Shown in pieces: positions 4,671-40,962 of a stretch of DNA of 64,000 bases (position 1 is its first letter; the number at the start of each line of letters is the position of its first letter). The position numbers and the translations under genes were made by a program. Source of the DNA: a bacterium. Lineage in GTDB: Bacteria > Vulcanimicrobiota > Vulcanimicrobiia > Vulcanimicrobiales > SCRA01. The notes under the pieces were generated by a model. That model was not told the DNA's origin. It saw nothing but the letters and a program-made list of their open reading frames with translations, and made no database searches. Location of the stretch: positions 14,262 through 78,261 of the forward strand of contig SCRA01000044.1 of NCBI GenBank assembly GCA_004297985.1, in the 5' to 3' direction.

Positions 4671-5270
4671 ATGTTCGCTCGGGATCCGCTCTTTTGGCGC
4701 GCCGGCGCGGTCAGTTCCCTGATCGTGACGCTCGTCGTTCTGGCGATGCTCACCACCGACACGCTCCGCGTCATCACGGCCGGCGGGCAGAACGTGCCCA
4801 CCTACACCGTGATCAACCACCAGATCGGCTACGAGTACGTCACCGACCGCAACGAGTACATGCCCACCATCGGTGGGCAGGAGCCGCTCTTCGGAAAGAT
4901 CTATAGCCCCGCGCAAGCCGAGGCACTGGTGCGCCATGGCAAGCTCGTCATCCAGAGCCGCGCGTGTCTGGACTGCCATACCATGTTCGGCACCGGCGCC
5001 TACTATGCGCCGGACCTCACCAAGGCGTGGCTCGATCCCGCGTGGGAGCACCTATGGATGCCGATGACCGGCACCCATACGCGCGCCGACGCAATCGCTG
5101 CGTTCCTCCAGCACCCCGAGCAGTATCCCACGTGGACCCGTGAGATGCCCAACCTGCACCTCACGCTGGACGAGGCGCAAGCGGTGGTGGCCTACCTCAA
5201 GTGGGTCTCCGCGGTCAACACGAACGGCTTCCCGTACGGCTTCAAGACGGCCGCCGCGGGGGGCACCTAA
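4671..5270 (+). CDS. norC: Nitric oxide reductase cytochrome c subunit NorC
   Basis: One N-terminal TM helix and a single haem-c site CLDCH followed by TMFGTGAYYAPDL. The C-terminus MPNLHLTLDEAQAVVAYLKWVSAVNTNGFP closely parallels canonical NorC. Confidence 0.8.
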   Translation: MFARDPLFWRAGAVSSLIVTLVVLAMLTTDTLRVITAGGQNVPTYTVINHQIGYEYVTDRNEYMPTIGGQEPLFGKIYSPAQAEALVRHGKLVIQSRACLDCHTMFGTGAYYAPDLTKAWLDPAWEHLWMPMTGTHTRADAIAAFLQHPEQYPTWTREMPNLHLTLDEAQAVVAYLKWVSAVNTNGFPYGFKTAAAGGT

Positions 5271-5284
5271 AAGAGAGGCACGGC

Positions 5285-6709
5285 ATGCAAGAGCGCCTCA
5301 GTTTTCCCGAATCGCAGAGCCTGGCCCTCAAGTACTTCACCGTCTCCGTGGTGCTCTTCGGTATCGTGGTCGTGGCCGGCCTGTTGGCGGCGATCGACTA
5401 CGTGCATCCGCAGTTCCTCTATCCCGCGCTGCCCTTCAGCATCCTCAAGATCCTGCATATCGACGTGCTGATCATCTGGATCCTGATGGCCTTCATGGGG
5501 GCGCTCTTCTGGTTGCTTCCCGCGGAGTACGGGCGGGAGCTGGTGGGCCTCAAGCTCGCCAACATCATCTTCTGGATCTTCTGCGCCACGGTGCTCGTGG
5601 TCGCCGCCATCTTCGTCTTCGTGCAGGTCGGCCCGGGCACGGAGAAGACGCTCTGGCTCGTCAATCAAGGACGTAAGTACGTCGAGGAACCGCGCTGGGC
5701 GGCGATCATCGTGGCCATCGGCGTCGCCGTCTTCGTCTACAACATCGTGGGAACCGCTATCGCCAGCAAGCGCGTCACGGGCGTGGTCTGGGTGGTCATC
5801 CTCAACCTCGTGCCGCTCTTCTTCCTCTACCTCATCGCCTTCCCGGCACCGACCAACATCTCCGTCGATCAGTTCTGGTGGTGGTGGCTGGTGCACTTCT
5901 GGGTCGAGGCGACCTGGGAGGTGATGATCGGCTCGATCGTGGCGCTGGTGCTGATGCGCCTGATGGGCACCTCGCGCAGGATCGTGGAGACCTGGCTCTA
6001 CATCGAAGTGGCGCTGGTGTTGGCCACCGGCGTCTTGGGTATCGGCCACCACTACTTCTGGATGGGGGCGCCGGCCTACTGGCTGGGGATCGGCGGCTTC
6101 TTCTCCGCCCTCGAGCCGCTGCCGCTCTTGGGTATGGTGGTGCATGCCGTCTACGACGCCGGCGAGCACCACATGAAGATGACCAACGAGCCCGCCTTCT
6201 ACTGGATGATGGCGGAGGCATTCGGCAACTTCATCGGTGCCGGTATCTTCGGTTTCATGATCACCCTGCCGCAGATCAACCTCTTCGCGCACGGCACGCA
6301 GTGGACGGCATCCCACGGCCACTTCGCCATGTGGGGAGCCTACTGCGGCGTGATCTCGGTGATCTACCTCGCGCTGCAGGACCACCGCCGCGCTGCGCTC
6401 TTCGCCGGTGCGACGTGGAAGTGGGGTTTCGCCCTGCTCAACGGCGGGATGATCGGCATGGTCGGCTCGCTGATGATGGCGGGAATGGCGCAGGCCTTCT
6501 ACGAGCGCGCGATCGGCGGATCGACGTTCAACGCCTTCGTCTCGGCGTCGTCGTCTCCGTGGTTCATCGAGGGCTTGGGAATGCGGCTGGTCTTCGCCAT
6601 CGTCTTCACCGCGGGGTACGTCGTTCTCGCCTACGATCTGCTCACCATCGGGAAGCGCGTGCTCGAGACCTCGCGGGCCGGCGGCCCGGCGCGCGCACCG
6701 GCGGAATGA
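5285..6709 (+). CDS. norB: Nitric oxide reductase large subunit NorB (cNOR type)
   Basis: ATG at 5285 with an AGAGAGG RBS upstream. 12-TM haem-copper superfamily protein with WWWLVHFWVEATWEV and HGHFAMWGAYC motifs typical of NorB. Earlier in-frame residues of ORF 5201.. overlap norC and look non-coding. Confidence 0.85.
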   Translation: MQERLSFPESQSLALKYFTVSVVLFGIVVVAGLLAAIDYVHPQFLYPALPFSILKILHIDVLIIWILMAFMGALFWLLPAEYGRELVGLKLANIIFWIFCATVLVVAAIFVFVQVGPGTEKTLWLVNQGRKYVEEPRWAAIIVAIGVAVFVYNIVGTAIASKRVTGVVWVVILNLVPLFFLYLIAFPAPTNISVDQFWWWWLVHFWVEATWEVMIGSIVALVLMRLMGTSRRIVETWLYIEVALVLATGVLGIGHHYFWMGAPAYWLGIGGFFSALEPLPLLGMVVHAVYDAGEHHMKMTNEPAFYWMMAEAFGNFIGAGIFGFMITLPQINLFAHGTQWTASHGHFAMWGAYCGVISVIYLALQDHRRAALFAGATWKWGFALLNGGMIGMVGSLMMAGMAQAFYERAIGGSTFNAFVSASSSPWFIEGLGMRLVFAIVFTAGYVVLAYDLLTIGKRVLETSRAGGPARAPAE

Positions 6710-18078: not shown

Positions 18079-18999
18079 CTAGAGAAACGAGGAGAGCTTC
18101 GCGCGATCGATGCGCGCGATGCGTCCGCCCTCGAGCTCGATGGCTCCGGCATTCTCTAACTCGAAGAGAGCACGCGCCGCTACTTCGCGGACGGTCCCCG
18201 CCGCGATTGCCAGTTGGCTCTGGCTCATACGCCGCGCCGACGAGAGCACCGGGGCCAGCCCTTGATCCGGGGGCGCGTAGGGGAGCAGCGCGCGCGCCAC
18301 GCGCTCCACCGTGGAGCGCCCCGCTAAGAACTCCAGGCGCTCGGCCAGCGCGCGACCTCGCTGTGCGCAGAGCAGCGCGATCGAGCGTACCAAGCCGATA
18401 TCGCTCTCCATCTGTTTGAGCACGACGTTGCGCGGCACGGCGACGATGCGCGCCGCGCCGAATGGCGGTGCCACGCGCCCCAACATCGTCCCGCCATCGA
18501 CCAGCGAGAGCTCTCCAAACGTCTCGAAAGGGAGGAACTCGAAGAGCAGGCGCTCGCGGCCGTTGGCCGAGCCGGCGATCATCCCTAGCGTTCCCTCGCG
18601 AACGAAGCCGAGGTAGGGCCACTGCGATCCCTGCTCGTTGAGAGCTTCACGGTGCGGGATAGAACGCTCGAGCGCGTTGGCGACGAAGGCCGCGCGCGTC
18701 TCGTCGCTGCAACCCTCCAGCGCGGCGCAGCGGCCTAAGAAATCTTCCAAGCTGCCGTCGCGCCCTTCTGAGTCGATGCGCCGGATCGTCACTACCCAGT
18801 CGTCATCGCTGTGCTGCCGCTGGAGCCAGACGAAGCGCCCTTCGCGCTGACGGTCGAACTCAAAGCGCAGTGGACGCGGCTCATGATCGGTGGAGAGCTG
18901 GAGCTCCTCCCCCGGGCGCAATGCATCGAACGCCGCGAAGATCTCCCGGTGCCGCAGCCAGGTGGGGATAGAACGAACGTCGATGAGGTGCGCGATCAC
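18079..18999 (-). CDS. Crp/Fnr-family transcriptional regulator with N-terminal DUF2249 domain
   Basis: The N-terminal ~75 aa (LIDVRSIPTWLRHREIFAAFDALRPGEELQLSTDHEPRPLRFEF) closely parallel the stand-alone DUF2249 protein at 21007-21255. A cNMP-binding-like barrel and a C-terminal HTH (SQSQLAIAAGTVREVAARAL) follow. Confidence 0.78.
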   Translation of the reverse strand: MIAHLIDVRSIPTWLRHREIFAAFDALRPGEELQLSTDHEPRPLRFEFDRQREGRFVWLQRQHSDDDWVVTIRRIDSEGRDGSLEDFLGRCAALEGCSDETRAAFVANALERSIPHREALNEQGSQWPYLGFVREGTLGMIAGSANGRERLLFEFLPFETFGELSLVDGGTMLGRVAPPFGAARIVAVPRNVVLKQMESDIGLVRSIALLCAQRGRALAERLEFLAGRSTVERVARALLPYAPPDQGLAPVLSSARRMSQSQLAIAAGTVREVAARALFELENAGAIELEGGRIARIDRAKLSSFL

Positions 19000-19048: not shown

Positions 19049-19366
19049 TCAACGACCGAGCTGGCGATGGGCCTCCTCGCTCATCCGCTCAGGCGACCAA
19101 GGGGGCTCGAACGTTACCTTCACGTTAACGTCGCTGACCCACGGCACGGAGGTCACGGCACGCTCGACGTCCATCTTGATCGTATCGTGCATCGGGCAGC
19201 CCGGCACGGTCAGCGTCATCACGATGTCCACGTGGCCGTTGCTGTCTTCGACGCCGATCCCGTAGATCAAACCGAGGTTGACGATATCGATGCCAAGTTC
19301 AGGATCGATCACGGTCGTCAGTTGCTGCAGCACTTCCTCGTGCAGCGGCGTCATCTCAGCACTCAT
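19049..19366 (-). CDS. DUF59/MIP18-family metal-sulfur cluster assembly factor
   Basis: VIDPELGIDIVNLGLIY...TLTVPGCPMHD is the hallmark DUF59 motif. ATGA overlap with the upstream gene. Confidence 0.82.
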   Translation of the reverse strand: MSAEMTPLHEEVLQQLTTVIDPELGIDIVNLGLIYGIGVEDSNGHVDIVMTLTVPGCPMHDTIKMDVERAVTSVPWVSDVNVKVTFEPPWSPERMSEEAHRQLGR

Positions 19367-19581
19367 GCGTCACGCTCCACGGTCAACAGGTACCCATCTC
19401 CGTTAGGTTCACAGGTATAGCGCAGGCCGCGCGTCTCCAACTCCGGAAACAGAAAGCGCGGCTGACGCTCCATGATGGCCGTGAGCTTTCCGGGGCCCTG
19501 CATATTGTCCAGCGCCTCGAGAATGCGAATCATGGGCTCCGGCGGATGGAGCCCACGGTTGTCCAGATGGATGTCGCTCAT
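19363..19581 (-). CDS. DUF2249/TusA-like small protein (subtype B)
   Basis: 72 aa from the ATG at 19579-19581: MSDIHLDNRGLHPPEPMIRILEALDNM..., a TusA-like layout with His in place of the TusA Cys. Only the C-terminus of track ORF 19363..20700 is credible. ATGA overlaps at both ends. Confidence 0.68.
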   Translation of the reverse strand: MSDIHLDNRGLHPPEPMIRILEALDNMQGPGKLTAIMERQPRFLFPELETRGLRYTCEPNGDGYLLTVERDA

Positions 19582-20777
19582 GCCTTCAACCCCACGTATT
19601 GCCAGCCCAGTCGGGCGAGCACCGCCACCGCGCCGATGCCGCCTGCCGCGTAGACTACGGCCGCCATGCGCAACGCCTCCGGAGCGAACGCCGTCGAGAG
19701 CGCCGCACCCAGCGCACCGACTACCAGCAATGCCAGGCTCACATTCGATGCGCGCTCCGGCACGGCATTCCCTAGCGGCGGAAGTTTCGCGGTCGGATGC
19801 ATACGCCGAGCATACTCCCAGGCCAAGAAGCCTACCACCTTGTAGGAGTAGCCCAAGATCGAGAGCGAGAGCCAACCCAGGATCGCGAAGGCGACGGCGG
19901 CAGGCGCCTTGTCCGGATGCCAGGTGGCACCCAGAGTGCAGCCCGCTGCGAACAGTGCGAAGACCCAGGCTGCAGAGGCGTAGCGCAGGCTCACGTCGAT
20001 CTTCTTGCGCATGCGCTTTTTCAACGTGTGCAGGTGCACGACGACGGCGGCGATCACCGATACGATCGCTATGATCGACCCCGCACGCATGTACCAGATG
20101 CTGAGGAACACCAGTCCGCCTGCCACACCGGCGACGGCGATCGTCCACTGCGCGCTGCGCGTCCAACGTCCTTCGGTCGTATGCGCGAGCGAGAACATCG
20201 GCACGAAGCGATAGGAGACCGCGAAGACGAACGTGCTGGCGAAGGCGATGACCACGAGCGAGGCGTGCGTTGGCGCCAGGAGCAACGCGCCCACGGCGGC
20301 GCGTCCGTCCAAGGCTAGGGCCATCACTGCGCCGATGCCGGCCGCTGCGATGAAAGCCACGGTCGCCGCGATCACGGCGGCGCGCGTCTGTGCCTCGAGC
20401 GGGGCGGTACGGATGCGATTGATGGTCCAGATCCCCCACGCCGTCACGCCCACGAAGAGCAGCGGTCCCGCGATCGAGAAGAGGACATGGATACCGTGGA
20501 AGCCGCCCAGCAGGAGCACGAAGCCCAGCACCAACGGCGCCGAGAGGAGCATGACGGTGCGCGCCGGAGCCGCCTTGGCACCCGTGAGCACCGGAACGAG
20601 CTGGTTGGAGGCGCCCACGACCGCCATGACGATGAAAGCGGCGAACGCATGAAGCGTGAGCAGCGAGGCGCCGTTCACGATTAACGAGACACAGCCGCAA
20701 AGAAAAAACGCCAACGCAACGGCGAGGAGCGCCCCGCTCCCCGCCGGATCGCTGACGTTGTCACCCGACGAGATCAT
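19578..20777 (-). CDS. 12-TM integral membrane protein of unknown family (distant haem-copper-oxidase-like helix II string)
   Basis: 399 aa from the ATG at 20775-20777 (ATGA overlap with the upstream gene). About 12 hydrophobic helices. TM2 reads LHAFAAFIVMAVVGASNQLVPVLTGAKAAPAR. Confidence 0.7.
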   Translation of the reverse strand: MISSGDNVSDPAGSGALLAVALAFFLCGCVSLIVNGASLLTLHAFAAFIVMAVVGASNQLVPVLTGAKAAPARTVMLLSAPLVLGFVLLLGGFHGIHVLFSIAGPLLFVGVTAWGIWTINRIRTAPLEAQTRAAVIAATVAFIAAAGIGAVMALALDGRAAVGALLLAPTHASLVVIAFASTFVFAVSYRFVPMFSLAHTTEGRWTRSAQWTIAVAGVAGGLVFLSIWYMRAGSIIAIVSVIAAVVVHLHTLKKRMRKKIDVSLRYASAAWVFALFAAGCTLGATWHPDKAPAAVAFAILGWLSLSILGYSYKVVGFLAWEYARRMHPTAKLPPLGNAVPERASNVSLALLVVGALGAALSTAFAPEALRMAAVVYAAGGIGAVAVLARLGWQYVGLKA

Positions 20778-21001
20778 GACTTCGGCGCGAAGCGGATATG
20801 AAACTCTCCGTCTGTCACGCGCGTGCACTCGTGGCCAAAACCCTTACGATCCATCACGCGGTAGAGCGGGGTGGGTTCGAACGTATTGATGAGCAGGAAC
20901 GTCTGCCCCGGTTCGAGGGAATCGACCGCATCCATGATCGCCTGATACGGCTCCTCACCACGTTCGTGGTAGGGGCGTACATCGAGGACTCTCGGTTCCA
21001 C
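20774..21001 (-). CDS. DUF2249/TusA-like small protein (subtype B)
   Basis: 75 aa from the GTG at 20999-21001: VEPRVLDVRPYHERGEEPYQAIMDAVDSLEPGQTFLLINTFEPTPLY. Starts 5 nt after the previous stop. Confidence 0.62.
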   Translation of the reverse strand: MEPRVLDVRPYHERGEEPYQAIMDAVDSLEPGQTFLLINTFEPTPLYRVMDRKGFGHECTRVTDGEFHIRFAPKS

Positions 21002-21006
21002 GTCAG

Positions 21007-21255
21007 TTAGTCCGCAACGCGCTCGCCGAGTACAGCGGTCTTCTTGATGTCGACGAGCCAGATGTCGGGCCCCTTCTGCGCGTAATCCCACGAGAACGTG
21101 TTGGGGTAGTCGTGGTCGAGTTCGAAGCGCAGCGGGCGCGGGTCGTGGTCGTTGATGATGCGCAACGTGTCGCCCAGCGCGAGCGCCTCGTATTTCTCGA
21201 AGATGGTGGTGTGCTTGCGGCCCGGCGGAAGCGGGCGAACATCGAGTTCGATCAT
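21007..21255 (-). CDS. DUF2249 domain protein (subtype A)
   Basis: 82 aa from the ATG at 21253-21255: MIELDVRPLPPGRKHTTIFEKYEALALGDTLRIINDHDPRPLRFEL. The rest of track ORF 21007..21741 is Arg-rich shadow. Confidence 0.75.
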   Translation of the reverse strand: MIELDVRPLPPGRKHTTIFEKYEALALGDTLRIINDHDPRPLRFELDHDYPNTFSWDYAQKGPDIWLVDIKKTAVLGERVAD

Positions 21256-21302: not shown

Positions 21303-22532
21303 TCACGCCGAATGAACGGGCAGTCTCTTCAGATCGACCGATTCGTCGGAAAGCAGCGCGCGATCGATCGCCGGGCGCGTTCGCAGCAGCCGTTTGGCCG
21401 CCGAGAGGTCCTTGAAGCGATTGACGGCGAGGCAAGCCTGCAGTCGTCCGCCCATGAGATAGAACGCGCTGAACGAGCCGCTCTCGGGGCTTGCGCGCAG
21501 CACCAGATCGCTCCAGCGCGGCGCGTGGCCTACGTATTGTATCGAGCGATCGTACTGGTCGGACCAGAAGAACGGCACCGGCGCGTACGGCTCGGTCGCA
21601 CCGAGCATGCACCTCGCGGCCCAGACGCCGTGATTTTGCGCATGATCGAAGTGTTCGACGCGCAACCGTCCGCCCCACGCTGGGTGGGGCCAGTTCGCCA
21701 CGTCGCCCGCGGCGTAGAGATCGGCGACGCTGGTGCGGCACTGTTCGTCCACCACGATGCCGTCCTGCACGTCGAGCGTTGCGCCCTCCACAACCGGCAC
21801 GTTCGGCGTAACGCCCACGCCGATCACAACCAGGTCGCAGGGTACCTCCTCACCATTGGTGAGGAGCGCCGCCTCGACGCGCTCCGCCCCACGCAACGAA
21901 ACCACACCCACGCCCACGCGCACGTCGACGCCGTGATCGCGGTGCATGGAGACGATCCACTGGCCCAAACGCTCACCGATGGCCGCGGCAAGCGGCGTGG
22001 CGACATCGATCATCGTGACGCGGCAACCCAGCGCGCGCGCCGAGGCCGCGACTTCGCAGCCGATGAAGCCCGCTCCAACCATCAGCACCTTCGGCCGTGA
22101 GGCAAGCTCCTTGGCGAGCGCGTCGGCGTCGCGCAGCGTCCGAAGGTAGTGGAGGCCGGGCAACTCCGCTCCCGGCACCCGCAGCCGACACACCGTGGAG
22201 CCCGTGGCGATCAGCAACCGATCGTACGAGAGGGCGCTGCCGTCGGAGAGCAGGGCACGGTGCACCGGCGCGTCGATGCGCTCGACGCGCGTGCCCAGAC
22301 GCAGCTCGATCCGCTGCTCCGCGTAGTACGACTCCGGACGCAGGTAGAGCTCGTTGCCGCCCTTCTCGCCGCGCAGCCGCTCCTTGGAGAGCGGCGGGCG
22401 TTCGTAGGGGCGTTCCGCCTCTTCGCCCACCAGCACGACGCGCCCGGAATATCCTTGCTGGCGCAGCGCCTCCGCGGCGCGTCCGCCGGCGAGGCCCGCC
22501 CCGACGATGACCACCGTGGCCGGCTCACTCAT
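21303..22532 (-). CDS. FAD/NAD(P)H-dependent ferredoxin/rubredoxin-reductase-type oxidoreductase
   Basis: From the ATG at 22530-22532: VVIVGAGLAGGRAAEAL (FAD GxGxxG), VLMVGAGFIGCEVA (NAD GxGxxG), YAAGDVA and a C-terminal reductase_C-like domain. Confidence 0.85.
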   Translation of the reverse strand: MSEPATVVIVGAGLAGGRAAEALRQQGYSGRVVLVGEEAERPYERPPLSKERLRGEKGGNELYLRPESYYAEQRIELRLGTRVERIDAPVHRALLSDGSALSYDRLLIATGSTVCRLRVPGAELPGLHYLRTLRDADALAKELASRPKVLMVGAGFIGCEVAASARALGCRVTMIDVATPLAAAIGERLGQWIVSMHRDHGVDVRVGVGVVSLRGAERVEAALLTNGEEVPCDLVVIGVGVTPNVPVVEGATLDVQDGIVVDEQCRTSVADLYAAGDVANWPHPAWGGRLRVEHFDHAQNHGVWAARCMLGATEPYAPVPFFWSDQYDRSIQYVGHAPRWSDLVLRASPESGSFSAFYLMGGRLQACLAVNRFKDLSAAKRLLRTRPAIDRALLSDESVDLKRLPVHSA

Positions 22533-22558
22533 GGGCAGGATGCACGGATACGGGAACG

Positions 22559-22589
22559 CACACGAACATGTGGCGGCTACGTTCGTGTG
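22559..22589. promoter_or_regulatory. Inverted repeat upstream of the reductase/DUF2249 operon
   Basis: CACACGAAC (22559-22567), a 13-nt spacer, then GTTCGTGTG (22581-22589), 27-57 nt upstream of the start at 22532. Could be an operator or a 5'-UTR hairpin. Confidence 0.3.
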
Positions 22590-22774
22590 GGCGCTGCCGA
22601 ATCTCCTGGCACGCTCCCACGACGTCGCGGCACCAGCAGGTCTCGCGTCGCCCTTGCCATCTCGATGTCTTCGCGAGCGTGGATCACCAAGGTCCGCGTC
22701 CGCGAGGCCCAACCTACTGTCTCGGACCTTCAAGCCAGCCTTGGCAAGCGTGCTCGCTGAGTAGTGGCCGAGGC

Positions 22775-23239
22775 TCATCCACCGCTTCGCACCCCATCCT
22801 CGAGCACCAGACGCAGCCGCTGGAGCAGACGGCGAACGGTAATCTCGGCCACGGCGTTCCCGCCGACTCTGTCGATCATCAGCCCCAAGGGGCCCAGCGG
22901 CGGGGTATAATCACCCAAAATTGCCAACTGGGTCCGCGTAGCCGAGAGCGGAACCACTTCGATCCAGCCGCGGAACTCCGGGAAGGCGCGGCTATCGGTG
23001 ACGCGCCATACAATCGGCATCACGGTGGCATAGGTACGCTGTTCGGGCTCGCCGAGGTTCATCAGCACCTTACGCGTGAAGCGCCCCAGCCGCGGCAGGT
23101 GCAGGTCCTCGAAGGGGACATCGAGCTCGTACCACATTCCCGGCTCACCGGAGTCTTCGGGAGCAAGGGCACGCCGAAGTCGATCCACGATCTGATCGGG
23201 CGCGCAGGCCACCTCGCTTTCGTAGAATACATGCGCCAT
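22775..23239 (-). CDS. Uncharacterised paralog family member X1 (~155 aa, SRPBCC-like by inference)
   Basis: Shares with X2-X4 the pattern FPxFxGxhxVxP...L.hxGxYxPPxGxxGxxxDxxxGxxIAxxTxRxxL (here FPEFRGWIEVVPLS...LGDYTPPLGPLGLMIDRVGGNAVAEITVRRLL). Confidence 0.6.
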   Translation of the reverse strand: MAHVFYESEVACAPDQIVDRLRRALAPEDSGEPGMWYELDVPFEDLHLPRLGRFTRKVLMNLGEPEQRTYATVMPIVWRVTDSRAFPEFRGWIEVVPLSATRTQLAILGDYTPPLGPLGLMIDRVGGNAVAEITVRRLLQRLRLVLEDGVRSGG

Positions 23240-39568: not shown

Positions 39569-40962
39569 CAGGCCACCTCCGAGATCGGCTCGACTCTGCT
39601 GATCACGCGCTCACCGCCGCTCAGCATGAACCACACGTTCCACGCGAAGACCAAGTGGCTGATGAACATCAGCGATCCGCCGATCGAGCGCCACAGCCAA
39701 TCCGGCGCGATCGCCGTCACCGAGTCGATGAACGGCGCGCCGCTCATCCAGACCAGGCCCTGGATCGTGCCGCCGATCGAGAGCGCCAGAATGTAGATCG
39801 CCATGCCGACGGTGGCGAGCCAGAAGTGCAGACCGGCCAGCGTGAGTGAGGGAGCGCGCCCGGTGGCACGCGGCACCAAGGCGTAGATGCCGCCCCAGAT
39901 TCCGAACGTGATGAACGTGTACATTGTCAGGTGGGAGTGGCCCACCGTGAAGTTCGTGAGGTGCCAGACGGCCTGCAGCGAGCGGAACGCCTCGAAGGTT
40001 CCCTGCGTCGATCCCAGCAGGTAGCCCAGTACGCCGACGAAGACGAACGGCAGCGCATACGAGCGACGTACCTGCTCCCAGCGCCCGCGCATCGTGAGCA
40101 AGAAGTTCGCGCTGCCCGCCCAGACCGGCACCAGCATGGCCACGCTGAAGACGATAGCGAGCGTCTGCAGCCACCATGGTAGCGGACTGAAGATGAAATG
40201 GTGTGCGCCGATGATCGGGTAGAACACGAGGTTCGTCCAGAACGCGAGAACGCCCAAGGCGTACGAGTAGATCGGGCGGTTGAGCAACTTCGGCAGCACG
40301 TAGTAGAAGAGTCCCAACGTGAGCGGGGTGAACCACATGCCGACGGCGTTGTGCATGAAGAAGCCTTGCACCGCCACTTGTCCCAGACCATACTGATACA
40401 GCGGGATGAAGGCCACGGTCGAGAGGATGAGCGTCCAGATGATGCCGCCCATCGTGTACCAGTTGGAGAGATAGATGTCGTCATCTTTCCGCCTGGCGAC
40501 CGTCATGATGAGGTTATACGCGGCGGTGAGGATAGCGATCAGGAGGAGCGCCTCTATCCACCAGATCCACTCGCGATACTCTTGGTCTCCGTTGTTGAAG
40601 CCTAGGTCGAGCGCGACCGTCCCGAGCGCGGCGGCGACGTTGAAGAGCGCGAGCGTGACCCACCCCAGCTTGATGCTGTACAAGCGTGTGGCGCAGGTCT
40701 TGCAGGCGACGTAGAACACCAAACCCACGAGCGCGATGCTGGCCCATGCGTAGAACGTATCGTTGGTATGGATCGGCCGGAGTCGACCGAACGAGAAGTA
40801 GGGGCTGGTCAGGAACTCCGGGTAGGCAAACTTGAAGGCAACGATGAGGCCGACGGCCGTCGACAGCACGAGCCAGCCGGTAGCAAACGCGATATATGCC
40901 CCAAGGAGGCTCGTGATCTCGCGATCGTCCTCGTCCTGTAGGGCAACGCTTCTGGCAATCAC
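39568..40962 (-). CDS. ccoN: cbb3-type cytochrome c oxidase subunit I
   Basis: 464 aa, 12+ TM helices. IHTNDTFYAW, GAHHF and VGHSHLTMY histidine motifs. Its stop shares a base with the ccoO start. Confidence 0.9.
   Translation of the reverse strand: MIARSVALQDEDDREITSLLGAYIAFATGWLVLSTAVGLIVAFKFAYPEFLTSPYFSFGRLRPIHTNDTFYAWASIALVGLVFYVACKTCATRLYSIKLGWVTLALFNVAAALGTVALDLGFNNGDQEYREWIWWIEALLLIAILTAAYNLIMTVARRKDDDIYLSNWYTMGGIIWTLILSTVAFIPLYQYGLGQVAVQGFFMHNAVGMWFTPLTLGLFYYVLPKLLNRPIYSYALGVLAFWTNLVFYPIIGAHHFIFSPLPWWLQTLAIVFSVAMLVPVWAGSANFLLTMRGRWEQVRRSYALPFVFVGVLGYLLGSTQGTFEAFRSLQAVWHLTNFTVGHSHLTMYTFITFGIWGGIYALVPRATGRAPSLTLAGLHFWLATVGMAIYILALSIGGTIQGLVWMSGAPFIDSVTAIAPDWLWRSIGGSLMFISHLVFAWNVWFMLSGGERVISRVEPISEVA

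Follow-up and report, generated by a model that had tools for sequence, protein, structure and literature searches.

P0001, a 399-residue membrane protein encoded on the minus strand of the 64,000-nucleotide stretch analysed here (the window), is predicted to fold, like the catalytic subunits of haem-copper oxidases (HCO) and NO reductases (NOR), into 12 helices with three-fold pseudo-symmetry. There are strong indications against a catalytic oxidase or NOR and in favour of an "HCO-homology" (HCOH) pseudo-oxidase: of the six canonical HCO histidines, it retains just H43 in TM2 and H171 in TM6. It belongs to a large superfamily without a name, in which it represents a divergent branch from Eremiobacterota and Dormibacterota. 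Our overall proposal, to which we assign a probability of roughly 0.6, is that of an HCOH pseudo-oxidase that would hold a haem in pore A, dock DUF2249 and DUF59 proteins, and serve in the response to NO or low oxygen.

Gene and membrane topology

The gene and its product are as follows.

19578..20777, minus strand: 12-TM membrane protein P0001 with a predicted HCO fold (HCOH type), from the translation, the AlphaFold2 (AF2) model and Foldseek

The translation is free of stops and contains both strings that the preliminary description had quoted, LHAFAAFIVMAVVGASNQLVPVLTGAKAAPARTVMLLS for TM2 at residues 42-79 and APTHASLVVIAF for TM6 at residues 168-179. The AF2 model (pLDDT 89.4, pTM 0.91) has 12 long helices, in agreement with the 12 TM segments claimed there. 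The predicted cytoplasmic loops carry 20 Lys and Arg residues versus 2 on the outer loops, so that both termini are placed in the cytoplasm and H43 and H171 in the outer third of the membrane. Comparison of P0001 with Pfam and NCBIfam gives no match at E≤1, and PDB sequence and profile searches return nothing meaningful.

Relationship to haem-copper oxidases

Foldseek searches of the PDB match the P0001 model to CcoN (3mk7; E 4.5e-5, TM 0.69, probability 1.00) and to NorB, qNOR, bo3 and bovine COX1 (TM 0.54-0.66). The matches are confined to HCO/NOR catalytic subunits, and the best unrelated fold reaches a TM of about 0.28. The preliminary description had proposed either a pared-down version of the oxidase scaffold or simply a novel family, and had recommended a structure search; with HCO/NOR subunits at TM 0.54-0.69 and no transporters among the matches, the search supports that proposal.

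At the sequence level, the COX1 family (Pfam ID PF00115) is matched below threshold by the relatives P0085 (4.5e-7) and P0110 (1.7e-6); distant relatives score only 18 to 29.5 bits (threshold, 34.8 bits), and one of 35 close relatives gives a match with an E value of 0.006. The profile of the P0001 family picks up the window's own NorB (E 7.5e-4). The likeness of P0001 to the oxidases thus exceeds chance, given the Foldseek match to CcoN, the sub-threshold COX1 matches of its relatives and the NorB profile match. In hhalign comparisons, small NOR and NnrS alignments outperformed single HCO sequences as targets, the latter giving weak, register-ambiguous matches; the alignment of the P0001 family to NOR is full-length and in register, with an E value of 6e-3 and a probability of only 6%.

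P0001 is an internal triplication of a 4-helix unit. The three units (EU1 to EU3) align with each other with hhalign probabilities of 96-97% and E values of 1.5e-11 (EU1-EU2), 1.1e-9 (EU1-EU3) and 1.5e-9 (EU2-EU3). The repeat alignment pairs H43 with H171 and equates Q59, R190 and K313, as well as P62, P193 and G316, which makes the K313 motif in TM10 the third copy of a (Q/R/K)-x-x-P motif.

Conserved residues

The conserved positions cluster in five segments.

20583..20663, minus strand: TM2, residues 39-65, with the invariant H43 (codon 20649-20651), from homologue conservation
20205..20294, minus strand: TM6, residues 162-191, with the invariant H171 (codon 20265-20267) and R190, from homologue conservation
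20181..20201, minus strand: cytoplasmic TM6-TM7 loop motif P193-M194-F195 ... H199, from conservation in 207 homologues
19995..20015, minus strand: motif R255-x-R257-x3-D261 in the cytoplasmic loop between TM8 and TM9, with superfamily-wide conservation of 98%, 90% and 87%
19818..19841, minus strand: cytoplasmic half of TM10, K313-V-V-G316-F317-L318-x-W320, from the repeat alignment and conservation

Conservation of the TM2 and TM6 histidines was the other check recommended beforehand. Among about 207 homologues, down to ~20% identity, both are invariant (H43, 99%; H171, 100%). The observation that P0001 lacks the HH pair of TM7 and the HxH of TM10 is correct for the family as well, with no conserved His in either helix in 207 sequences. 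In the close family, the sole conserved His columns are 43, 171, 199 (80%, versus 53% in the far family) and 248 (94%). H248 is part of an H248-L-H250 string at the cytoplasmic end of TM8; H250 is not conserved, and H248 is so in the close family only. The in-register alignment with the NorB profile puts H43 opposite the TM2 haem-b histidine and H171 opposite the TM6 FeB/CuB histidine (the GHPEVY position); the parallels drawn earlier between these two helices and those of the oxidases therefore hold at the level of the alignment.

Further invariant residues in the outer half of the membrane are G85 (TM3), G149 (TM5) and G301 (TM10). Outer-half conservation peaks in TM2, TM5 and TM3 and is lowest in TM6 (H171 excepted), TM7-9 and TM11-12. 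The remaining invariant residues lie mostly on the cytoplasmic face. They include the PMF motif (residues 193-195), which is at least 98% conserved across the 207 homologues and falls in a loop segment (residues 193-201) with a pLDDT below 50 in the AF2 model; Q59 and P62-V63 are close to the cytoplasmic end of TM2. The P0001 branch differs from the main family in its branch-specific R121, E128, H248 and Y310.

Operon structure

P0001 is encoded in a one-strand gene cluster, listed here in the order of transcription together with its leader.

22559..22589, no strand assigned: 9-bp inverted repeat CACACGAAC-N13-GTTCGTGTG in the operon leader, from the sequence
21303..22532, minus strand: flavoprotein of the FAD/NAD(P)H ferredoxin-reductase type, encoded by the gene that opens the operon (Pyr_redox_2, E 5.5e-64; Reductase_C)
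21007..21255, minus strand: DUF2249 protein A, 82 aa, of the RKHxxIF...DHDP type (Pfam ID PF10006, E 7.7e-25)
20774..21001, minus strand: DUF2249 protein B, 75 aa (PF10006, E 5.5e-19)
19363..19581, minus strand: DUF2249 protein C, 72 aa, of the TusA-like GLHPPEP type (PF10006, E 2.8e-12; TusA, E 7.8e-5)
19049..19366, minus strand: DUF59/FeS_assembly_P (SufT-like) protein, 105 aa, with a PGCP cysteine (Pfam ID PF01883, E 8.8e-23)
18079..18999, minus strand: DUF2249::Crp/Fnr-family transcription regulator, 306 aa (Pfam domains DUF2249, residues 6-74; cNMP_binding; HTH_Crp_2)

The membrane gene stands between DUF2249-A and -B on one side and DUF2249-C and DUF59 on the other. Overlapping ATGA stops and starts link DUF2249-B to P0001, P0001 to DUF2249-C, and DUF2249-C to the DUF59 gene, and DUF2249-A ends 5 nt ahead of the DUF2249-B start. 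The placement of P0001 between DUF2249 genes with overlapping stops and starts, noted in the preliminary description, is thus confirmed by Pfam on both sides; as to the stoichiometric co-production read from it, the ATGA coupling is there, and co-production would follow from that coupling only. The DUF59 protein matches the NCBIfam SUF_assoc/SufT models below their cut-offs. The flavoprotein probably starts at the ATG at 22532 (the Pfam domain begins at residue 88 of the open reading frame), shows NorW-like similarity, and is not conserved, being absent from the loci of the relatives L009 and L010. The N-terminal DUF2249 domain of the regulator is 41% identical to the free DUF2249-A.

The inverted repeat in the leader is a candidate operator or RNA hairpin, judging from its sequence. 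Its core, ACGAAC-N13-GTTCGT, recurs without mismatch just once more in the genome (C27:17783-17807). The operon leader contains no canonical Fnr/Dnr box (TTGAT-N4-ATCAA, with up to 2 mismatches). No NO-related gene adjoins the operon in the window; the norC-like and norB-like genes are separated from it by unrelated genes and a distance of 13 kb. The genome has NOR-like and several oxidase genes, as well as two P0001 paralogues with neither DUF2249 nor DUF59 nearby.

Superfamily and gene neighbourhoods

The superfamily comprises 1,423 clusters at 50% identity from at least 8 phyla, and its carriers include cultivable Bacillaceae, Ignavibacteria and Campylobacterales. The P0001 branch is only about 20-25% identical to its bulk. 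The survey of related loci and of taxonomy used the distant-family alignment (A3), so that its results refer to the wider superfamily and not to the close branch of P0001.

In this survey, DUF2249 is encoded on the same strand within 2.5 kb of the membrane gene at 78 of 84 loci, and DUF59 is found nearby at 71 to 78 of them (71 by the same distance and strand limits); 65 of the 84 have both within those limits. The order with DUF2249 upstream and DUF59 downstream recurs at the relatives' loci. Natural fusions join DUF2249 to the membrane protein (P0196) and the membrane protein to DUF59 (P0137), and both fused ends are cytoplasmic by topology. These fusions argue for a physical association of the membrane protein with DUF2249 and DUF59 with more force than the ATGA coupling does.

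Among 30 loci, the neighbours include Crp/Fnr regulators (15 loci), true HCOs (9 loci, 5 of them with qNOR), molybdopterin oxidoreductases (3 loci) and a NirK-like gene; the qNOR gene adjoins the membrane gene in Bacillaceae. Downstream of the relative P0085 come DUF59, a DrpB-like protein with DUF1858 and DUF2249, and a DrpA-like DUF2249 protein. In the 60%-identical relative L010, a DUF2249::Crp fusion likewise stands behind the operon, from which DUF59 is absent.

A proposed haem site in pore A

The TM2 and TM6 histidines sit in a helix-X-like motif, H...G..G...P, that is reused in both helices of the P0001 family. Their distances to the conserved Pro can be compared with those in helix X of this genome's A-type and cbb3 oxidases. 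The TM6 spacing of 22 equals that of the first (own-pore) His of the helix X HxH, and the TM2 spacing of 20 in the wider family (19 in the P0001 branch) equals that of the second (next-pore) His. The resulting 22-23/20 pattern is that of low-spin haem ligation in real HCOs, here rotated by one unit. Of the two HSH histidines in P0085, the spacing analysis makes the first the counterpart of H171, and not the second, with which it had initially been equated.

On these grounds, we have moderate confidence in a single b-type haem that would be held jointly by H171 and H43 in pore A (TM3-TM6 and TM2), a placement that rests on helix registers with a noise of about one residue. Rotation by one unit would bring pore A into correspondence with the low-spin haem site. 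In true oxidases, aromatic residues fill pore A, and to our knowledge no characterised haem-copper oxidase or NOR has a cofactor there. Against pore A stands the NorB alignment, in which H43 falls on the haem ligand of TM2 and H171 on the CuB/FeB ligand of TM6, two residues that face different pores in real HCOs. In TM2 of this genome's own HCOs, His and Pro are 21 residues apart in the NOR and 23 in the A-type oxidase. A search of the P0001 family for conserved outer-side Arg or Trp residues that could serve haem propionates identified none.

Proposed function and alternatives

P0001 is likely to act as a non-catalytic haem-binding hub for DUF2249 and DUF59 proteins, with a part in NO or low-oxygen sensing and in the care of iron centres. 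Its conserved cytoplasmic face may well dock the two kinds of partner, a suggestion that we make with moderate confidence. The assignment of the complex to NO or low-oxygen respiration is the weakest step of the proposal. The haem would report NO or the redox state, and the DUF2249 proteins would relay its state to the DUF2249-bearing regulator by partner switching or membrane sequestration; DUF59 would tie the complex to the care of iron centres. A more detailed version, with the pore-A haem as a membrane NO/redox sensor, DUF2249 as its readout, and the Crp-type regulator captured or released through its own DUF2249 domain, is put forward tentatively, with the odds against it. If true, this would add a third type of cofactor site to the HCO fold, along with a mode of signalling that is new.

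The same genes could instead form a platform for metal or haem trafficking and maturation, which we consider rather unlikely. P0001 would then be a channel or insertase that moves iron, copper or haem between cytoplasmic carriers, namely DUF2249 (TusA-like fold) and DUF59 (reactive cysteine), and NOR, nitrite reductase or other enzymes of respiration; the two histidines would bind metal transiently instead of forming a fixed haem site, and repair of NO-damaged iron centres would be a further possibility. This would account for the presence of DUF59/FeS_assembly_P next to the membrane gene in most loci and its fusion in P0137, for the qNOR adjoining in Bacillaceae, and for the polar Q59, R190 and K313 at equivalent sites of the three units near the cytoplasmic face. 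It would also suit the DUF1858+DUF2249 protein behind P0085, since the N-terminal domain of RIC/ScdA, a group of iron-repair proteins, is a relative of DUF1858. The low nitrate reductase activity of the Thermus drpAB mutant hints at maturation, too (PMC6282519). However, the P0001 model matches no transporter-like fold, some close relatives have no DUF59, and the DUF2249::Crp fusion points to signalling; histidines that are invariant at ~20% identity, together with invariant glycines at the same depth, resemble a fixed cofactor pocket.

A cryptic enzyme (a new NO reductase, NO scavenger or oxidase) appears improbable. Its single haem would be five-coordinate, with H171 proximal and H43 distal, and would convert NO or O2 by means of electrons supplied by the NAD(P)H flavoprotein of the operon. 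The HCO/NOR fold, the NorW-like FAD ferredoxin-reductase gene at the operon head, and a TM6 HxH in about 28% of the distant members, like helix X of true enzymes, fit this scheme, but a second metal site is missing (no TM7 HH, TM10 HxH or conserved outer-half glutamates), the reductase is not conserved among relatives, the haem would sit near the outer face, distant from cytoplasmic electron donors, and the genome already has its NOR-like and oxidase genes. Very improbable is a cofactor-less scaffold or a decaying oxidase relic, with histidines kept for folding or helix packing and an incidental neighbourhood. Although no Pfam or NCBIfam model covers P0001, the 1,423 clusters share the same invariant residues and gene neighbours over at least 8 phyla, fusions included; 20 invariant positions are kept at 20% identity, and the genes of the P0001 operon are translationally coupled. 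The pseudogene or relic reading was rejected on the clusters, invariant residues and conserved neighbours. Twelve helices and about 400 residues would also suit an unrelated secondary transporter (MFS, MATE or similar) with a chance likeness to oxidase helix II. That reading is already refuted: transporter and GPCR folds reach a TM of 0.12-0.29 and a probability of at most 0.35 in Foldseek, versus 0.54-0.69 and about 1.0 for the HCOs, and P0001 repeats a 4-helix unit three times, whereas MFS transporters have a 6+6 duplication.

Few membrane enzymes have been studied as thoroughly as haem-copper oxidases and NO reductases. Here, a large sister group of the HCOs keeps the fold, loses the catalytic centre, and is mostly accompanied by DUF2249 and DUF59 proteins. 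Learning what the two histidines bind and how DUF2249 and DUF59 act would give a function to two widespread domains, would possibly explain the nitrate-respiration phenotype of Thermus DrpA/DrpB, and would show how the oxidase scaffold was reused, or how it evolved, via its third pore. The Eremiobacterota version offers a handle in the form of a transcription factor fused to the partner domain DUF2249.

Comparison with known systems

Pei, Li, Kinch and Grishin (2014, Protein Sci 23:1220) reportedly described HCOH proteins built of three units, with two conserved histidines that are said to have been proposed to bind a single haem. The P0001 family fits this description. By that account, both have 12 TM helices in three homologous 4-helix evolutionary units, a homology to HCO/NOR that is remote only, two conserved histidines, and neighbourhoods tied to denitrification or NO genes and to DUF2249. 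Of the preliminary description, the relative of the oxidase scaffold thus stands, whereas the superfamily is not new to the literature. Within it, the P0001 branch is set apart from the bulk by its one-residue shorter TM2 His-to-Pro spacing and the four residues of its own named above. Pei et al. (2014) are cited as tying DUF2249 to homologues of the HCO superfamily, and DUF2249 genes are induced during haloarchaeal denitrification (PMC11218638). A search of the literature on HCOH or NnrS homologues found nothing relevant.

NnrS (Pfam ID PF05940) is a haem- and copper-containing membrane protein of denitrifiers that is linked to NO stress. It is the best named profile match of the P0001 family, with a full-length, in-register hhalign alignment (probability 85%, E 6.4e-6), and resembles it as a 12-TM, HCO-derived protein with few histidines and an NO-related context. 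The second His of its WHxHE motif aligns with H43. However, NnrS has two histidines in TM2, one in TM10 and none at position 171, whereas the P0001 family has one each in TM2 and TM6 and none in TM10. PF05940 (cut-off, 28 bits) matches neither P0001 nor its 35 close and 10 distant relatives, and a six-frame search of the whole genome with this model found nothing. An identity of P0001 with NnrS is ruled out by the missing PF05940 match and the different set of histidines; the NnrS strings had rightly been reported as absent, WHxHE among them. We know of no characteristic flanking of NnrS by DUF2249 and DUF59.

With CcoN and NorB/qNOR (COX1, PF00115), P0001 shares the predicted fold (TM 0.6-0.69), the topology, the three-fold pseudo-symmetry, and alignable TM2 and TM6 histidines. 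It is about 70-150 residues shorter and has no TM7 HH, TM10 HxH, cross-linked Tyr or catalytic Glu, and therefore no binuclear centre. In place of subunit II/III or NorC partners, it has the cytoplasmic DUF2249 and DUF59 proteins.

The closest parallel on the side of the partners is the Drp system of Thermus thermophilus, whose drpA-drpB genes lie downstream of the nar operon and encode, respectively, a DUF2249 protein and a protein with DUF1858 plus two DUF2249 domains (PMC6282519). The two proteins modulate regulators of nitrate respiration, and DrpB associates with the membrane although it has no TM segment; in the drpAB mutant, nitrate reductase protein is produced but shows little activity (PMC6282519). 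For Drp, no HCO-like membrane partner has been described, whereas the P0001 operon has no DUF1858 and carries DUF2249 fused directly to a Crp-type regulator. The two systems have in common the same partner domains, as seen at the P0085 locus, and a regulatory link to regulators of the Crp/Dnr type.

Gene and operon organization

The 399-residue membrane protein P0001 is encoded by an open frame of 399 codons at window positions 19578-20777 (minus strand); its translation contains both peptide strings quoted in the preliminary description (residues 42-79 and 168-179). As stated there, the gene overlaps its neighbors at both ends, by ATGA in each case: the upstream TGA runs into its ATG, and its own stop runs into the downstream ATG. 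The downstream gene overlaps its own successor in the same way. Pfam assigns the neighbors as follows.

21303-22532 (minus): ferredoxin-reductase-type flavoprotein, operon head
21007-21255: DUF2249 protein, upstream (DUF2249-A)
20774-21001: DUF2249 protein, upstream (DUF2249-B)
19363-19581: DUF2249 protein, downstream (DUF2249-C)
19049-19366: DUF59/FeS_assembly_P protein
18079-18999 (minus): regulator, N-terminal DUF2249 domain fused to a Crp/Fnr core

For the flavoprotein reductase, the longest ORF (21303-22778, minus strand) opens 82 codons before the Rossmann fold. Translation probably begins at the ATG at 22532, which would give a 242-nt leader. The leader contains a perfect 9-bp inverted repeat at 22559-22589, CACACGAAC-N13-GTTCGTGTG, and no canonical Fnr/Dnr box. 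The repeat core, ACGAAC-N13-GTTCGT, occurs without mismatch at just one further site in the 3.2-Mb genome (G000:C27:17783-17807). This repeat could be the operator of the DUF2249-Crp regulator. The DUF2249 domain of that regulator is 41% identical to DUF2249-A (E = 1.7e-19) and far less similar to the two other free DUF2249 proteins, and the three free proteins share just 27 to 33% pairwise identity, over parts of their length. Thus, the operon encodes three distinct DUF2249 types, one of which is copied by the regulator.

Fold and topology

P0001 has no match in Pfam or NCBIfam at E ≤ 1 and none in a PDB sequence search. The AlphaFold2 model, for which 35 homologues were aligned, consists of twelve long helices (mean pLDDT 89.4, pTM 0.91). 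In Foldseek searches of the PDB, its top matches are exclusively catalytic subunits of the haem-copper oxidase (HCO) superfamily: cbb3 CcoN (3mk7; E = 4.5e-5, TM score 0.69), bovine COX1 (TM score 0.66), cNOR NorB, qNOR, and cytochrome bo3. The first unrelated folds (TMEM175, GPCRs, and transporters) score only 0.12 to 0.29, a range that rules against an unrelated transporter. Lys and Arg residues number 20 on one side of the membrane and 2 on the other, indicating the oxidase topology, with both termini inside and even-numbered helices running from outside to inside. This topology places H43 (TM2) and H171 (TM6) in the outer third of the membrane, where the metal centers of oxidases also reside.

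Homology to oxidases and internal triplication

Several distant relatives of P0001 show subthreshold matches to the Pfam COX1 and CcoN models, including P0085 (COX1, 4.5e-7, 29.5 bits, under the 34.8 cutoff) and P0110 (COX1, 1.7e-6). Assignment of P0001 itself to COX1 was rejected, as the protein falls short of the profile threshold and lacks the full set of histidines. When run against the whole genome, the family profile retrieves the P0001 gene, two paralogues, and, weakly and in register, the N terminus of the NorB encoded in the window (E = 7.5e-4). Alignment of the family with a small nitric-oxide reductase (NOR) alignment by hhalign is full length and in register (E = 6e-3), with H43 opposite the haem-b histidine of TM2 and H171 opposite the FeB/CuB histidine of TM6, in agreement with the oxidase parallels initially drawn for TM2 and TM6.

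The family alignment was split into residues 8-126, 127-258, and 259-399, and the pieces were compared by hhalign. The resulting probabilities (97.4%, 96.4%, and 96.3%; E = 1.5e-11 to 1.5e-9) identify P0001 as a triplicated 4-helix unit, the known architecture of HCO subunit I. In the unit alignments, H43 corresponds to H171 and to Ala296 of the third unit; Q59, R190, and K313 are equivalent, as are P62, P193, and G316.

Family size and conserved residues

A profile search of 1.84 billion representatives yielded 1,423 clusters at E ≤ 1e-3 and just 23 at E ≤ 1e-30, which places P0001 in a small divergent branch of a large superfamily of 400- to 450-residue proteins. By name, the sources of this branch are Eremiobacterota and Dormibacterota metagenome-assembled genomes. 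In an alignment of 207 sequences, H171 is 100% and H43 99% conserved. Other invariant or nearly invariant positions are A56, Q59, P62, and V63 (TM2), G85, G149, P193-M194-F195, R255, R257, D261, G301, G309, K313, F317, L318, W320, and P333; R121, E128, H248, W114, W271, and Y310 are conserved specifically within the P0001 branch. The same alignment has no conserved histidine in TM7 or TM10, consistent with the reported absence of a TM7 HH pair and a TM10 HxH. The binuclear center of oxidases and NORs is formed by the TM7 HH and the first histidine of the TM10 HxH. P0001 therefore lacks this center as well as the canonical TM10 low-spin haem ligand. The initial observation is confirmed, and with the HCO fold present, the binuclear ligands gone, and two histidines kept, the original reading of a stripped-down oxidase-scaffold relative or novel family is supported.

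About 28% of distant members (e.g., P0085, P0120, and P0137) have an HxH in TM6 (positions 171 and 173) that copies the helix-X motif of true oxidases; these proteins may bind a second cofactor.

A predicted haem site in pore A

Spacings were counted from the Pro that is conserved in the second helix of every unit, at its cytoplasmic end. Every member has the TM6 histidine 22 residues before this Pro. For the TM2 histidine, the distance is 20 residues in 111 of 112 distant members and 19 residues in 83 of 84 from the P0001 branch. Helix X of the genome's own A-type and cbb3 oxidases reads H(0)-x-H(2)...G(7/8)...G(15)...P(22). In HCO structures, the first helix-X histidine ligates the haem of that helix's own pore, and the second ligates the low-spin haem of the next pore, together with the TM2 histidine of that pore's arc. 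Under three-fold rotation, the "22-type" TM6 histidine would point into pore A (the TM3-TM6 arc), and so would the "20-type" TM2 histidine, with TM2 closing the pore. H171 and H43 would then reproduce, in rotated form, the bis-His site of the low-spin haem, in a pore that real oxidases block with aromatic residues. The helix registers are noisy by ~1 residue (the TM2 histidine of HCOs precedes the Pro by 21 or 23 residues). Besides the two histidines, the invariant positions of the outer half are all glycines: G85 in TM3, G149 in TM5, and G301 in TM10. Within that half, TM2, TM5, and TM3 are the most conserved helices; the least conserved are TM6 (H171 excepted), TM7-9, and TM11-12. The glycines and this TM2/TM5/TM3 pattern fit a haem in pore A, and we infer from these sequence features that P0001 may bind one there.

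Partners and gene neighborhoods in relatives

A pattern scan across species-representative genomes shows relatives at no fewer than 553 loci, in taxa that include Ignavibacteria, Bacteroidota, Ktedonobacterales, Campylobacterales, NC10, Nitrospiraceae, Verrucomicrobiota, Myxococcota, and Bacillaceae (Anoxybacillus, Mesobacillus, Heyndrickxia, and Lentibacillus). Partners were surveyed at 84 loci with HMMs derived from the DUF2249 and DUF59 proteins of the window. Within 2.5 kb of the membrane gene, DUF2249 is encoded on the same strand at 78 loci and DUF59 at 71 (78 on either strand); both are present at 65. Typically, one or two DUF2249 genes precede the membrane gene and DUF59 comes after it. 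Natural fusions also occur: P0196 (532 residues) has DUF2249 before the membrane domain and P0137 (469 residues) has DUF59 after it, both fusion points being cytoplasmic. P0096 (862 residues) is twice the usual length, with two matched stretches.

Among 132 other neighboring ORFs from 30 loci, Pfam identifies Crp/Fnr regulators at 15 loci, true HCOs at 9 (5 of them qNOR), molybdopterin oxidoreductases at 3, and a NirK-like protein.

Other HCO-related genes in the genome

Neither the norC/norB-like pair nor the ccoN gene of the window adjoins the P0001 operon.

4671-5270 (plus): NorC-like membrane-anchored cytochrome c (CLDCH)
5285-6709 (plus): NorB-like HCO (HFWVE, GHHYFW, and SHGH motifs), directly after the NorC-like gene
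~39673-40902 (minus): cbb3-type oxidase subunit CcoN (COX1, E = 2.8e-81; GAHHFIF and VGHSHLT motifs)
G000:C82:109801-110895 (locus L096, 5780-7144): paralogue 1, family profile match
G000:C22:81993-83180 (locus L097): paralogue 2, family profile match

The cNOR-type pair lies 13 kb from the operon, and a second, nearly identical norB-like gene is found on contig C54. COX1-family genes number seven in the genome, two of them inside the window. The two paralogues match the family profile with E = 8.5e-39 and 1.3e-29 and, unlike the window copy, have no DUF2249 or DUF59 genes within ~5 kb. Directly upstream of the C22 paralogue is a 150-residue ORF (L097, 6021-6473; G000:C22, ~81520-81972) with an HGH motif and a match to the family's middle unit (E = 6e-9). 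It resembles a free-standing HCO-homology protein of one 4-TM unit; such proteins have been proposed to assemble as trimers.

Functional interpretation

We favor, with a probability of roughly 60%, a non-catalytic pseudo-oxidase. In this reading, H171 and H43 of P0001 would together ligate one haem, and the protein would be a membrane hub on whose cytoplasmic face the DUF2249 and DUF59 proteins dock. The complex would act in NO or low-oxygen respiration, through sensing, relay to Crp-type regulators, and a link to the care of iron centers. A platform for metal or haem trafficking and maturation is a weaker candidate, with the DUF59/FeS_assembly_P partner on its side and the DUF2249-Crp fusion, which points to signaling, on the other.

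Cryptic turnover of NO or O2 appears improbable: the oxidase fold and the TM6 HxH of some distant members are in its favor, and the missing binuclear center is against it. Less likely still is a cofactor-less scaffold or relic, a reading at odds with the many invariant positions of the superfamily. Should the pseudo-oxidase reading hold, with a pore-A haem and a DUF2249 relay, P0001 would matter considerably more.

Comparison with known families

Among named families, NnrS comes closest by profile comparison (hhalign 85%, E = 6.4e-6, full length). However, its model PF05940 matches neither P0001, its relatives, nor anything in the whole genome, and NnrS has a TM2 HxH and a TM10 histidine whereas the P0001 family has histidines in TM2 and TM6. 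NnrS membership was therefore rejected, in keeping with the earlier remark that NnrS strings are lacking. The "HCO homology" (HCOH) group of Pei et al. 2014 reportedly comprises three-unit proteins with two conserved histidines, a single proposed haem, and denitrification or NO contexts; this description fits P0001. P0001 represents a new and divergent protein of this computationally predicted kind. A later paper cites Pei et al. 2014 for a link between DUF2249 and HCO-superfamily homologues (PMC11218638).

The partner proteins tie the module to Thermus DrpA/DrpB. P0085, which BLASTP aligns with P0001 over the C-terminal third only (34% identity), is followed by four genes, encoding DUF59, a DrpB-like DUF1858+DUF2249 protein, a DrpA-like DUF2249 protein, and a further DUF2249 protein. 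In Thermus, the Dnr regulators that govern nitrate respiration are modulated by DrpA and DrpB, the latter being membrane associated without a TM segment (PMC6282519).
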